Assembly (NCBI GenBank): GCA_934255405.1
Contig: CAKQNT010000009.1
Coordinates: 485-64,484 of the forward strand
Reading direction: 5' to 3'
Source: an uncultured Alphaproteobacteria bacterium
GTDB taxonomy: Bacteria; Pseudomonadota; Alphaproteobacteria; RF32; CAG-239
DNA: 64,000 bases
In this document: positions 32,231-36,273 of the stretch, piece after piece
Layout of the letters: each line of letters starts with the position of its first letter
How positions within the stretch are numbered: the first letter of the stretch is position 1
The notes under the pieces: generated by a model
What the model saw: the letters and a program-made list of their open reading frames with translations, nothing else
What the model was told of the DNA's origin: nothing
Databases searched by the model: none
Program-made: the position numbers and the translations under genes

Positions 32231-32277
32231 CACAAAAAACCGCCCACGAGGGGCGGCTTTTTTATGGTCGGGATAAC
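32231..32277. repeat. att-like direct repeat, copy 1 (terminator hairpin CCGCCCACGAGGGGCGG plus CTTTTTTATGGTCGG)
   Basis: A 43 bp segment is nearly identical to 36163..36205, which abuts and overlaps the tRNA-Pro 3' end. Confidence 0.6.
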
Positions 32278-32458
32278 TCTCTAAATCAGGAAACAGATAC
32301 CTTCTAAAATACCAAATAAAAAAATACAGCCGTCGTTAATATATAAAAGCAAGAACTATTTGGATTGACTTATAAACAAAAATATACTAATATTTGTCTA
32401 AAGGCAGATGAAATAAAATTGTAATATTATTAAAGTCTTTCAGGTAAGGAGAAAAACT

Positions 32459-33157
32459 ATGAATTTAAGGGATAGAATAGATACATTACGAAATATTGCA
32501 GTTGCCAATATGAGTGAAGTTGAACAAGTAAAAGATAATGGCTCCAGAGTAATTAAAAATGGTAAAGACCGATACACTGTCGAAAAAACTAATGATGTTA
32601 AGGAAAAGGACTATTTTAGTTGGGGAGACCCTAGAGACGTTGATCCTACAATAGCACGTACAGACTTCGTATGTTTTAATGTAACAGATAGCGACGGAAA
32701 TTCACAAGCTGTTACTGTAGAAAAAAGAAAGGTAATTTCAGATGGTTACAGAGAAATCAAATTGTGTGAAATAGGATTTGGTAAATCAGCCCGTTATGGA
32801 CTAGAATTAAGCGATGATACTGATATAAATGACATAAACAGTATTCGTTATCAATTAGATAAATCTAAAGACGACAAGGCTAAGCAATTCGCTCATTTTA
32901 TTGATAAATTTGTTATAGTCGCCCCAAAAGAAAGAAAGGCATATAAGGAATATGCAAATAAAATGAACAAGTTAGCTAGAGATAAGCAAAGAGAGCAAGA
33001 GCTTCGACAACGTGTTCAACAGAAAGAACAAGAAGAAAAAGCAAAACGAGAGAAACAAGAAGCAAAAAATAGAGAAACACAAGAAAAAAATAGAGCAAAA
33101 ACGGAAAGAAGAATTCAAGCAAGGTTTATAGGTAGAGGAGAGTCTACAGGTAGATAA
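32459..33157 (+). CDS. Hypothetical protein (232 aa) with a Lys/Glu/Arg-rich C-terminal tail
   Basis: AT-rich ORF flanked by the att-like repeats. Confidence 0.4.
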   Translation: MNLRDRIDTLRNIAVANMSEVEQVKDNGSRVIKNGKDRYTVEKTNDVKEKDYFSWGDPRDVDPTIARTDFVCFNVTDSDGNSQAVTVEKRKVISDGYREIKLCEIGFGKSARYGLELSDDTDINDINSIRYQLDKSKDDKAKQFAHFIDKFVIVAPKERKAYKEYANKMNKLARDKQREQELRQRVQQKEQEEKAKREKQEAKNRETQEKNRAKTERRIQARFIGRGESTGR

Positions 33158-33334
33158 TTAACAGGATATACAAGCTGGTACTTTTTTCTAGCTATCATAT
33201 CTCAATAATAAAACATCATGGGTTCTCTATTTAAACAAAAACCAGAGGATTAGCGTTGTTTCACTCCACCGTTGCGTAACATCTGCTTTGCAGCACCGAC
33301 GTTCTTTCGTCTGCCTGATACCCCCAACTTTGAC

Positions 33335-33393
33335 GGTGAACCGACTTCTGTATTCTTACCACAAAAAAAACCGCCCACGAGGGGCGGTTTTGT
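33335..33393. repeat. att-like repeat, copy 2 (GACTTCTGTATTCTTACCAC, A8, CCGCCCACGAGGGGCGG); doubles as the terminator of the 850 aa gene
   Basis: It shares its upstream module and hairpin with 36146..36190. The CCCAACTTTGACG module is also shared with 36070..36083. Confidence 0.6.
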
Positions 33394-33406
33394 GTGAGAT
33401 ACGCAA

Positions 33407-35959
33407 TTAGCCGTTTTGTTGGCTTTTTTTCTGTTTAAGAGCCTGTTTCATTGCTAATTTGTCAAAACCCTCCGGATTTTTGGCTTTTTTATCGCTCTTT
33501 GCTTTTATGCCTTCATTAATTTCTTCAAGCAACATATTGTTTCCACCTTGGGACCGCAATTTCTGTATAGCCGTGCAAACTCGCGCCTCTAAACTTTTTC
33601 TCTCTTCTTGTTGCTGAAGATTAGCCTCTGCTTGCAACGCATTGTCTTTCTCCGTTTTCTTCCATTCAAGAGATTTAGCTATAGTCGTGCGGGCTTTAGA
33701 AATGGCCTGTTCGGCTTTTTCCATTTTGGCCAACTGCTCCAAATCAAACTGCCCACGTCGATCCGAGATATAGGAATTTAAGTCAAGATTTTCTGGAGAA
33801 ATTGGTGATTTTGCGACAATTTGATCATGAAGCGACATTTGCTCATCAATTGAGACAGCTCTGCAAAAATCCTGCGTTAAACTATCAACCGCCGCACTAT
33901 TTTGAGCTGCCTCGCCGGATTTTTGTTGGGCGGCTTCTTTGGTATCATCTGCCAACATTTTACCTTTGTATTGGGATAATTCACTCAAATCAACATCACG
34001 AGCAAGCCTAGATACAACCGCGTTTAATTTTTCAACAGCTCTATTAAATTCTTGGCGCTCGCTTTCTTTTCTGAAGCCAAATATTGAACCAATAAAGCTC
34101 GGCTTCTCCAATTGCGGCAGAGGTGTCGGATCACTGTGATATTGCGCTGAAACACATTGATCAATGTATTGAGAAATCAGGCGTTCAACATTTTCTGCCT
34201 TGTATGCCTCTTCATCTTTTGCCGCAAAACTTTTATCTTTGCTACAATTTTGCATTTCTTTGAATGCGGCCTGCAAGTCGCTTATTTTTTCTGCAACCTT
34301 GCTGGTCTTTTGCTGCTCTAAGTGACAGCAGTTATCTACAGCCTCAATCTCTCTATAAAGCTGAGAACGTTTACGAGCAAATTCTTTGCGTGCAAGATAG
34401 TTCTCATCAACCAGTGACAATATTTCTTTTGCGGTGTATTCTTTGCCGGTTAGTTCTTTTAGCTCTGATTTTTGTTCAGGGGTAAAATCCTTTTTTTGCT
34501 GAACGGCGTCACTGGCCAAAATTGCAAAACGGCATGAAGTTTTAAATTTCTGCTCAGAAGTCATTCGGCTATCTGGCATATCAAGACAAAAATATGAAGT
34601 ATCCGCCTTAAACGCCACTTCTGAGCGAGAAATAATCGCACGTTTTTCTTTGGGAGAAAGTTTACTAAATTTACCGTACTTCTCGGATAAACGTATAAAA
34701 TCAAGACCATCGACGTCAAGAACAGAGTTTCTATCAATAAGCCCCTGAACCGTATTGGGTAGCATAATCCGTTTTCCGTTGCCATAGCGCTCGACTGTTG
34801 CTATATCTTCATTGGTTATTTGGCGGATGTAATAACCATCTTTATCAGTATTTATGACTTGTTGCAAAGCATCAACCGTCAGATTTTTGACCTTACCGTT
34901 AGCAATGTCATATTGCGCTGTTTGAAGATTCACATCAGCGAGCAAACCGCTAATCTTCTCTGCCGGTATTTCATCAAATGATTTTGCGTCAAACAACTTC
35001 TGGCAAATTGTTCTAAAGCCGGCATTAGCTGATTTATTGTTTGTGCGCTTTGAGGCTTTAATCAGAGCATCACGAACTTTTTTATAGCCATTGGGAAGAA
35101 TATTAACGTTTTTCTCGGCTTGAGTCTGGGCCTTTGAGGTATCTTGTTTGGCATATTCACTCGAACTATTGGGAAACCACCCAGTCCCCTCAAACCTTAT
35201 GTTTCCATATCGAAGAGATTTGTCGCTATCCACAATCAACTCTTTTATAACATCTACGGTCAAAATCTTTTCATCAAGACGCTCAACCAACTGCTCAAGT
35301 CCGTCTTTTCGGTGTTCAAGTAAAAAGGTTTGAATTGCTTTTTTTCGCTGTTCTTCACTTAAGCCTTGGTAATTTAACAAATCTCCTCTTTTATAGAGTT
35401 CTTCAGCAATTTTGAACTTTAAAAAATCTTGATTATTGTTGTGTCCGTAGGCTGTTTTGCATCTTTCAGCTGCGTCAAGAATTTGCATCAAATGTCTTTC
35501 TTTTTCAAAAGAAAGTTTCGTTATATTCTCCGGCTGACCAAGAAAGTTCTTGTCAAAATAATAACTGTGTTCACTATTCAACAACGCCAAATTGTCAGAC
35601 ATCGGGCGCTTTTCTATATTTTCTAATATTTTCCGGCAGAAATCATAATCAAAATTTTCGGCAATATTTATAACATTAAGAAGAATTTGAGGATTTTTAT
35701 TGGCCAAATTAATACATTCATTGATACGATCAGGATTTTTTCTTATAGTCTCATAGATCGCATACGCACAGATATCTGTGTTTTTGCCGGAGGTAAACAC
35801 AATATCACTCATAGGAATATCATCAGCAATATGAAATTTAACGTTGCCCTGTGTCGGAGAAGAATCATTAACCAACCAATTTTTGAATTCGGATAAAGTT
35901 TCTTGATTAATTTCTATATTGTGACGTTCGTTTCCGCCATAATTTCTGAAAGTTCCCAT
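33407..35959 (-). CDS. Hypothetical large protein (850 aa), coiled-coil rich at the C-terminus; orphan
   Basis: A long uninterrupted ORF with no P-loop or other motif I can recognise. It is AT-rich and is bounded by att-like repeats next to tRNA-Pro. Confidence 0.5.
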   Translation of the reverse strand: MGTFRNYGGNERHNIEINQETLSEFKNWLVNDSSPTQGNVKFHIADDIPMSDIVFTSGKNTDICAYAIYETIRKNPDRINECINLANKNPQILLNVINIAENFDYDFCRKILENIEKRPMSDNLALLNSEHSYYFDKNFLGQPENITKLSFEKERHLMQILDAAERCKTAYGHNNNQDFLKFKIAEELYKRGDLLNYQGLSEEQRKKAIQTFLLEHRKDGLEQLVERLDEKILTVDVIKELIVDSDKSLRYGNIRFEGTGWFPNSSSEYAKQDTSKAQTQAEKNVNILPNGYKKVRDALIKASKRTNNKSANAGFRTICQKLFDAKSFDEIPAEKISGLLADVNLQTAQYDIANGKVKNLTVDALQQVINTDKDGYYIRQITNEDIATVERYGNGKRIMLPNTVQGLIDRNSVLDVDGLDFIRLSEKYGKFSKLSPKEKRAIISRSEVAFKADTSYFCLDMPDSRMTSEQKFKTSCRFAILASDAVQQKKDFTPEQKSELKELTGKEYTAKEILSLVDENYLARKEFARKRSQLYREIEAVDNCCHLEQQKTSKVAEKISDLQAAFKEMQNCSKDKSFAAKDEEAYKAENVERLISQYIDQCVSAQYHSDPTPLPQLEKPSFIGSIFGFRKESERQEFNRAVEKLNAVVSRLARDVDLSELSQYKGKMLADDTKEAAQQKSGEAAQNSAAVDSLTQDFCRAVSIDEQMSLHDQIVAKSPISPENLDLNSYISDRRGQFDLEQLAKMEKAEQAISKARTTIAKSLEWKKTEKDNALQAEANLQQQEERKSLEARVCTAIQKLRSQGGNNMLLEEINEGIKAKSDKKAKNPEGFDKLAMKQALKQKKSQQNG

Positions 35960-36145
35960 ATTACGCCTCCCAACAAAGTGCTACTTTGAAATAAATATAA
36001 TATGCAAAGTATAATATTTGATTAATTGTAATATATTTTCACATTTTTGTCTATTATTTTTATAATTTTCACTCTGTACCCAACTTTGACGATACACCCA
36101 TATCGCTTTCGCTGGTAGTCAAACCAGCTTCTTCGCTGGTTCGAG

Positions 36146-36205
36146 ACTTCTGTATTCTTACCACAAAAAAACCGCCCACGAGGGGCGGCTTTTTTATGGT
36201 CGGAT
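36146..36205. repeat. att-like repeat, copy 3, overlapping the 3' end of tRNA-Pro
   Basis: GACTTCTGTATTCTTACCAC, A7, CCGCCCACGAGGGGCGG, CTTTTTTATGGTCGG. The last 7 nt (TGGTCGG, reverse complement CCGACCA) are the tRNA-Pro 3' end. Confidence 0.6.
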
Positions 36206-36273
36206 TGACTGGACTCGAACCAGCGACCTCTTCGTCCCGAACGAAGCGTTCTACCAGGCTGAACTACAATCCG
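36197..36273 (-). tRNA. tRNA-Pro (anticodon CGG), 77 nt
   Basis: Manual fold: acceptor CGGATTG/CAATCCG, D-arm GTTC AGCCTGGTA GAAC, anticodon stem CTTCG/CGAAG with loop UUCGGGA, T-arm GCTGG TTCGAGT CCAGT, CCA encoded. Confidence 0.85.

Follow-up and report, generated by a model that had tools for sequence, protein, structure and literature searches.

Tandem elements at gene 3′ ends

Cis-mobilizable elements (CIMEs) of the ICESt1/ICESt3 family in Streptococcus thermophilus keep attL and attR, carry no integration or transfer genes, and stand in tandem at the 3′ end of their target gene (PMC5704250). Where tandem accretion involves CIMEs, the newest insertion sits at the attachment (att) site that contains the gene end (PMC5704250). 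A comparable array occurs in a 64-kb stretch of DNA (the window; 41.7% GC) from contig CAKQNT010000009.1 of an uncultured alphaproteobacterium, in which two cassettes, encoding a 232-aa protein (cassette 1) and an 850-aa protein (cassette 2), follow a gene for tRNA-Pro(CGG). We consider the 3′ end of this tRNA gene to be an integration hotspot, and the window to hold two small integrated elements in tandem, neither with an integrase, at a probability of roughly 0.58. The array is best read as decayed or trans-mobilised islets, CIME-like, at a tRNA 3′ end. As in CIMEs, both ends retain att-like sites, genes for integration and transfer are missing, and the elements stand in tandem at a gene 3′ end without an integrase. 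Unlike CIMEs, these cassettes have yielded no related integrase-bearing integrative and conjugative element or integrative and mobilizable element; they are also much smaller (1-5 kb, one gene or operon), and their repeats lie mostly outside the tRNA.

The tycheposons of Prochlorococcus are tRNA-seeded islands in which successive integrations push older elements outward (bioRxiv 10.1101/2020.12.28.424599). Between neighboring tycheposons there is nothing but a partial copy of the tRNA; degenerate remnants and additional partial tRNAs occur as well, and the cargo is adaptive or defensive (bioRxiv 10.1101/2020.12.28.424599). A tRNA-seeded array, partial tRNA copies between elements and defence cargo are likewise found at the present locus and its variants. 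Tycheposons are defined by a tyrosine recombinase and replication modules, whereas none of the cassettes here has a Pfam domain of those kinds; moreover, they come from a gut alphaproteobacterium, and the partial tRNA copies measure 6-8 nt (19 nt in older remnants).

In the Islander approach, an intact regenerated tRNA and a displaced 3′ fragment in direct orientation mark the ends of an island, and tandem arrays are recognised (PMC4383910). This signature is present in the window, where the regenerated tRNA is accompanied by CCGACCA plus terminator in direct orientation at 32234-32271, and in relatives, whose displaced fragments are 6-8 nt long in L003 and L083 and 19 nt long in L070 and L083 (labels L003 to L093 denote fetched loci of relatives). 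The tyrosine integrase gene that Islander expects inside an island is absent. Because both an integrase gene and a longer tRNA-gene fragment are required, Islander would filter out this locus, and integrase-based island finders would miss such arrays.

In integron arrays, and in clusters of attC sites lacking integron integrases (CALINs), structured, imperfect palindromes about 60-140 nt long stand between the single-gene cassettes, and an integrase may be missing from the neighborhood. The locus resembles them in its single-gene cassettes between structured palindromic modules but has neither IntI nor R′′/R′ boxes (RYYYAAC/GTTRRRY), and its sites derive from a tRNA end and a terminator. By inspection, the outer arms of its palindrome, GGTTCGAG and CTCGAACC, depart from the RYYYAAC ... 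GTTRRRY consensus. Acinetobacter plasmids carry recombinase-less pdif modules, which are bounded by 28-bp palindromic XerC/XerD sites in alternating orientation and rely on host enzymes. Recombinase-less gene modules bounded by palindromic sites are found here too, but the repeats are direct, chromosomal, tRNA-linked and much longer. The locus is a new example of a known phenomenon, tRNA-linked islets with CIME-like tandem accretion. Two details set it apart, the shortness of the displaced tRNA fragments and the T-arm palindromes specific to each tRNA, and on their account a more novel system of cassettes moved in trans keeps a modest chance. The locus records strain-level genome plasticity in an uncultured lineage of Alphaproteobacteria, probably from the human gut to judge by how its relatives are named.

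Repeat architecture at tRNA-Pro

The 3′ end of tRNA-Pro, CCGACCA, points toward the islets. Read in the direction of the tRNA, the gene is followed by a 133-nt repeat module, here called R (copy 3; 36203 down to 36071), the 850-aa gene, a second repeat copy, a spacer of about 165 nt, the 232-aa gene in opposite orientation, a 30-nt element-side arm and repeat copy 1, beyond which lie a promoter and the gene for a 440-aa protein (Table 1). Because the same arrangement is seen in at least 9 independent assemblies, it is not an assembly artefact.

An earlier note on this DNA had described three copies of a module built on a bidirectional terminator hairpin, with positions that prove correct to within a few bases. 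The hairpin, CCGCCCACGAGGGGCGG, lies at 32240-32256, 33371-33387 and 36172-36188, and with up to 3 mismatches it has no further site in the 64 kb (0.05 expected from shuffles). A terminator scan scores all three as intrinsic terminators, and since A-runs and T-runs flank the hairpin on both sides, it reads as a terminator on both strands, as the note held. Copies 1 and 3 have an exact 38-mer in common (32234-32271 = 36166-36203; blastn E ~1e-16), and the final seven letters of this 38-mer, TGGTCGG, give the tRNA-Pro 3′ end in reverse complement. Between copies 2 and 3, the match covers 45 nt at 98% identity (33343-33387 = 36145-36188), GACTTCTGTATTCTTACCAC included, and the 13-mer CCCAACTTTGACG at 33323 and 36079. 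These shared stretches, the one lying further out included, had been pointed out from the letters and are borne out by the alignments.

In the direction of the tRNA, copy 3 runs from the last 7 nt of tRNA-Pro through an A-run, the terminator hairpin, a T-run and GTGGTAAGAATACAGAAGTC to a T-arm palindrome, a third hairpin, CGTCAAAGTTGGG and ACAGAGT. R is predicted to fold into three hairpins (-58.7 kcal/mol, z = -6.6). The terminator is hairpin 1, whose extended stem pairs ACCA of the tRNA with a downstream TGGT. Hairpin 2 is the palindrome, which consists of an inverted and a direct copy of the tRNA-Pro T-arm; in its left arm, 13 nt (CTCGAACCAGCGA) reproduce the T-arm exactly in reverse complement, with a score that none of the shuffles reached. 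All pairs of the palindrome stem are invariant in 5 sequences, while the spacer is 6 nt long in this species and in L070 and 4 nt in L083. Sites with islets have significant inverted tRNA copies, and empty sites have none.

Between the convergent 850-aa and 232-aa genes, copy 2 acts as a terminator in both directions. A proposed homology between its tail and the long R tails of L070 and L083 was rejected, the similarity not being significant. Copy 1 is probably the original terminator of tRNA-Pro, now upstream of the promoter of the 440-aa gene. About 21 nt of the element-side arm beside copy 1 recur at the distal end of a restriction-modification (RM) cassette in a sister strain (L003 9726-9746; 95% over 21 nt). 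Element-side arms were also considered as decayed tRNA halves, a candidate that was dropped: the 20 nt before the exact 6-8-mer match the tRNA at chance level only.

Stems of the tRNA-Pro terminator in L081 (2480..2500), L070, L083 and L090 include the pairs GCCGCCCC/GGGCGG, GCCACCCC/GGGTGG, CCGCCC/GGGCGG and GCCACCC/GGGTGGC. These compensatory changes between strains and species imply selection on the hairpin itself.

Table 1. Coordinates of the features at the tRNA-Pro locus (positions in the window)
Feature	Position	Strand	Content or basis
tRNA-Pro(CGG), putative insertion target	36197..36273	-	ARAGORN; Rfam tRNA, 65 bits
Copy 3, full tRNA-proximal R module	36071..36203	-	sequence, repeats, folding; homologous module at tRNA-Pro in two other species
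10-6-10 palindrome in copy 3	36119..36144		TCAAACCAGC-TTCTTC-GCTGGTTCGA; in tRNA direction TCGAACCAGC-GAAGAA-GCTGGTTTGA, R hairpin 2
850-aa protein gene, cargo of cassette 2	33407..35959	-	open reading frame
Copy 2, truncated R module	33323..33398	-	CCCAACTTTGACG, 7 nt, GACTTCTGTATTCTTACCAC, hairpin 33371-33387, TTTTGTGTGAG
232-aa protein gene, cargo of cassette 1	32459..33157	+	open reading frame
Element-side arm beside copy 1	32272..32301	-	reverse complement GGTATCTGTTTCCTGATTTAGAGAGTTATC
Copy 1, distal att-like site	32231..32271	-	hairpin 32240-32256, CTTTTTTA, TGGTCGG (displaced 7-nt tRNA 3′ end)
tRNA-side flank, pgpA (phosphatidylglycerophosphatase A)	36449..36928	+	Pfam PF04608, E = 2e-39
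Far-side flank, 440-aa hypothetical protein gene, then NUDIX and FlgE genes	30817..32139	-	

Variation among strains and related species

Two sister strains, L003 and L006 (98-99% identity), are uniformly 97-100% identical to the window over core genes and over both cassettes, and they carry one extra 4.7-kb cassette directly 3′ of tRNA-Pro (L003 5141-9758). Its genes encode Dam-type and N4/N6 methyltransferases, a DpnII endonuclease, a 184-aa protein and a DndB/DpdB-like protein, and it is bounded by a 129-nt direct repeat of R that starts with CGACCA (L003 5012-5140 and 9759-9888; one mismatch, one indel). Presence/absence polymorphism at exact repeat boundaries is thus found for the RM and DndB-like cassette. 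With its complete DpnII-type RM system, this cassette has the makeup of a small, strain-specific defence islet.

Other species hold other cargo at the same place. In the L083-L088 loci, which belong to another species, a different cassette with a gene for a 416-aa protein (no meaningful match in Pfam, PADLOC or PHROGs) lies between perfect 63-nt repeats that start with TCCGACCA, 8 nt inside the tRNA; beyond it, an R module homologous to that of the window precedes a displaced piece of the tRNA 3′ end, 19 nt long and exact, whose terminator differs. In a third species (L070), the R module stands alone, between tRNA-Pro and an exact 19-nt copy of the tRNA 3′ end. A gene for a 673-aa protein, for which Pfam, PADLOC and PHROGs hold nothing meaningful, lies 3′ of tRNA-Pro in L090, and the site is empty in L011, where the Tag gene (3-methyladenine glycosylase) follows the tRNA. 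Among the cassettes, the start of the displaced tRNA fragment lies 6, 7 or 8 nt from the tRNA end in the case of tRNA-Pro, and 7 nt in that of tRNA-Glu.

Cassette polymorphism, different cargo and empty sites in relatives together identify the tRNA-Pro 3′ flank, on sequence comparison, as a conserved insertion hotspot in related species. This agrees with the att-like character that the earlier note had given the repeats: a third cassette stands between 129-nt duplicates of the module, and other cargo or empty sites occur elsewhere. The note had further suggested a search of related strains for an empty tRNA-Pro site, which is present in other species (L011); within this species no empty-site strain was found, short contigs breaking at the repeats.

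Two strains of a more distant species (L092 5250..5345 and L093 780..885) are identical through the tRNA-Pro terminator and then fully divergent. L092 continues into a radical-SAM/BioB-like gene and L093 into an AT-rich insert with small cysteine-rich proteins. Since the divergence begins right after the terminator, the hotspot acts genus-wide. L011 is GenBank MT836925.1, entered as 'Bacteriophage sp.', and carries pgpA, tRNA-Pro and tag in bacterial synteny; its assignment as a phage was rejected, the gene order being that of a bacterial fragment from a related alphaproteobacterium. One further locus, L082 (3950..4606), joins tRNA-Pro, R and the 850-aa gene to a flavin reductase-rubredoxin/MatE flank; it comes from a co-assembly, is probably a chimera at the conserved tRNA, and was not used as evidence.

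An islet of the same architecture (window 54322..55968) follows tRNA-Glu (55969..56043, minus strand). Its tRNA-proximal part (~55873-55968) comprises the terminator and a module with TTGAACCCA-TAGAT-TGGGTTCGA, in which the T-arm of tRNA-Glu is present once inverted and once direct. The cargo is an AT-rich gene for a 416-aa protein without an assigned function (54419..55669), and a second copy of the repeat (~54322-54383) is made up of ATCACCA (identical to the 7 nt that end the tRNA), an A-run and, once more, the 36-nt palindrome module. The possibility that this 416-aa protein and the one at tRNA-Pro in L083 represent a single cassette was discarded, the two being unrelated. That a T-arm palindrome recurs at two tRNAs is a concrete peculiarity, open to testing, which could hint at how a recombinase recognises its site.

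Beyond the terminator of tRNA-Phe (25426..25501), the downstream stretch 25502..25600 contains CTTGGGGACGGG, an inverted copy of the tRNA segment CCCGTCCCCGAG (p ~0.003 against shuffles). Further out lie AT-rich genes without family matches (405, 127 and 108 aa). This flank may be a third decayed islet.

Proposed course of integration and alternative explanations

Integration by an integrase would start from a circular element whose attachment region comprises the last 6-8 nt of the tRNA, the element's own terminator copy and the downstream R. Recombination at the extreme 3′ end of the tRNA would regenerate tRNA and terminator from element DNA and push the earlier junction outward, leaving the newest element nearest the tRNA. 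The circle junction of each cassette would join the element-side arm ...TTTCCTGATTTAGAGAGTTATC to CCGACCA, followed by the start of R. The direct repeats would be long (38-129 nt) because successive elements of one family start with a homologous terminator and R. A recombinase, which the array does not encode, may have been lost as the elements decayed to CIME-like remnants, or may act in trans from elsewhere in the genome. For tRNA-targeting integrases, an 'asymmetric 3′ end' has been described as a sublocation of the crossover; the displaced fragments of 6-8 nt, preceded by 20 nt that do not resemble the tRNA, fit this pattern. Because no recombinase has been identified, we only infer the site-specific catalysis, and with it integrase-mediated integration, the circular intermediate and the order of events. 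The exact junction sequences can be used to search metagenomic reads and to measure excision and integration.

That no integrase remains, as the earlier note had it, agrees with the searches. Below ~23.4 kb of the window, a Pfam scan of open reading frames of at least 170 aa returned no integrase, transposase or other recombinase family, and none is among the precomputed Pfam matches of called genes in overlapping contigs above that point. A megablast search of the locus against the PLSDB plasmids gave no match, and the sole match among the INPHARED phages is the tRNA itself, in MT836925. Five IMG/VR matches to the arm motif lie inside coding sequence and were rejected as chance.

A number of observations weigh against tandem integration as outlined. 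Integrases are absent from the variant loci of six species-level lineages as well as from the window, no integrase-bearing relative of the cassettes was found in the six locus lineages, IMG/VR or the phage and plasmid databases, and the IMG/VR viral contigs gave zero matches for the R module and for the tRNA 3′ 25-mer. No strain without the 850-aa or the 232-aa cassette was seen. The divergence of both cassettes equals that of the core genes, so they predate the split of the known strains and their mobility is historical at best. In other taxa, both cargo proteins have homologues in ordinary chromosomal places. Since no more than 6-8 nt of each repeat fall inside the tRNA and the greater part falls outside it, short-homology or RecA recombination could yield the same picture. 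The inverted T-arm copy in R is not expected from simple attL/attR logic. Finally, copy 2 lacks the tRNA 7-mer and about 51 nt from the middle of R, the palindrome region. The earlier proposal of two successive integrations, each regenerating the att site, accordingly holds for copies 1 and 3, and copy 2, without tRNA-derived bases, does not bear it out.

The limits of the repeats bear on a reading that needs no dedicated recombinase, in which the terminator and R modules act as portable homology: cassettes would loop out by RecA recombination between direct repeats and re-enter, by Campbell-type recombination or transformation, genomes with one R copy after the tRNA. The repeats (38-129 nt) have outer limits that vary by cassette (6, 7 or 8 nt reach into the tRNA, and the right ends differ), as if their length reflected shared homology; no locus variant has a recombinase gene, copy 2 is without a tRNA part, and the likeness of the copies flanking the RM cassette fades gradually about 15 nt past the repeat. 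However, such exchange explains neither how the first duplication came about, with a non-tRNA arm attached at precisely 6-8 nt from the end of the tRNA in four independent cassettes (two different tRNAs), nor the exact 19-nt displaced tRNA fragments in L070 and L083. We regard it as an unlikely origin of the locus, while it may well account for spread within a species once an array exists. A further alternative, a coincidental or dispersed repeat of the repetitive extragenic palindromic (REP) type, or a generic terminator reused at three genes and unlinked to insertion, draws on the fact that the bare 23-nt hairpin with its T-run is a generic terminator, present as exact single copies in 69 DNA stretches, nearly all from unrelated genomes. 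Within the window, though, the hairpin and its flanks are confined to this locus, and in a related metagenome-assembled genome the 23-mer occurs once, at tRNA-Pro. The repeats also reach well past the hairpin into the tRNA end, every R module of the fetched loci stands at tRNA-Pro (none elsewhere in the ~40 related loci searched), and the strain-level indel has repeat-exact boundaries. A dispersed repeat is already largely refuted and hardly credible, in line with the earlier note, which had named a REP-like element only as what would undo its proposal.

The palindrome raises a different prospect, a cassette platform that recognises hairpins in the manner of integrons or of Acinetobacter pdif, with R, a long imperfect palindrome that runs from the tRNA 3′ end and terminator through an inverted tRNA-like arm to the T-arm palindrome, as a recombination site read as folded or palindromic DNA by a recombinase encoded elsewhere (e.g. 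a host enzyme of the Xer type) and single-gene cassettes shuffled among tRNA flanks. R is strongly structured (z = -6.6), its 10-6-10 palindrome is typical of the core sites of tyrosine recombinases, an analogous palindrome from the tRNA's own T-arm stands beside tRNA-Glu, significant inverted tRNA copies mark the sites with islets and are missing from the empty ones, and each cassette is one gene or one operon with no recombinase. Against this, the spacer measures 6 nt in this species and L070 and 4 nt in L083, where a recombinase core would be fixed, and the repeat boundaries fall off the palindrome except in copy 2 and L083. Inspection reveals no integron-type R′/R′′ consensus, promoters accompany the individual cassettes, and none of the cassettes was seen at a second tRNA, the 416-aa proteins at tRNA-Pro and tRNA-Glu being unrelated. 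A platform of this kind seems improbable. Much the same holds for a working cassette system without a linked integrase, which would make the cassettes something other than decayed islands. Promoter-bearing cassettes with tRNA-mimicking modules would be inserted after several tRNAs (Pro, Glu, perhaps Phe) by a recombinase encoded elsewhere, each module combining a 7-nt tRNA 3′ end with a substitute terminator and a palindrome derived from the T-arm of the same tRNA. Doubtful as it is, such a system, if true, would amount to an integron-like platform over tRNA 3′ flanks in gut Alphaproteobacteria that also delivers defence genes (RM and DndB-like).

Cargo proteins and flanking genes

The cassettes carry their own promoters and have mixed orientations. 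The 850-aa gene has a promoter-like site at 36053..36025 in a promoter scan, and its product has no Pfam, PADLOC or PHROG match. Nine homologues are known, at 98%, 40-43% and 32% identity; two fetched loci of relatives at ~42-43% place the gene between ybjN-like and housekeeping genes, without a tRNA or repeats. The AlphaFold2 model is all-helical (mean confidence, pLDDT, 78) and has no fold match in the PDB.

For the 232-aa protein, Pfam, PADLOC and PHROGs return nothing meaningful. It has 4 homologues with a conserved motif, TDINDINSIRYQL...HFIDKF, and the invariant pattern of the family reads TDI.DINSIRYQ ... HFIDKF.IV.P. A relative at 43% lies in an ordinary chromosomal context, again without a tRNA or repeats. 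Its AlphaFold2 model (pLDDT 87) combines a beta-sheet domain with a long basic helix and has no significant fold match. Single-strand annealing proteins of the Rad52/Erf type recur among the non-significant Foldseek matches; if this likeness is real, it would be relevant to repeat-mediated recombination.

There is no paralogy among the cargo proteins. The earlier note had called both orphans, a description that their 9 and 4 relatives overturn: because homologues at 27-43% identity occur at unrelated sites, the two proteins represent small lineage-restricted families and not true orphans. Its description of the segments as AT-rich stands for the 232-aa segment (32278-33334; 33% GC) and is not clearly true of the 850-aa segment (38-39%).

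On the tRNA side, the array is neighbored by pgpA and a glycosyltransferase gene, and the position of pgpA next to tRNA-Pro is kept in synteny across related species. On the far side, the 440-aa gene has a promoter-like site at 32208..32180 (promoter scan), and its product has no meaningful match in Pfam, PADLOC or PHROGs. Over the locus, Rfam at E <= 1 detects nothing but the tRNA, the remaining matches falling far under their gathering scores.

A CRISPR array in the window (41960..44044) comprises ~31 copies of the 36-nt repeat GTTATAGCTTCCTTTCCAAATCAGATATGCTATAAT with a period of 66, and cas2, cas1 and cas9 adjoin it at ~44100..48600. In sister strain L006 the same place holds a different cas set, in which Cas9 measures 1154 aa as against 1074 aa and cas1 has the other orientation. 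Because the cas gene set of L006 differs, the CRISPR locus varies between strains.

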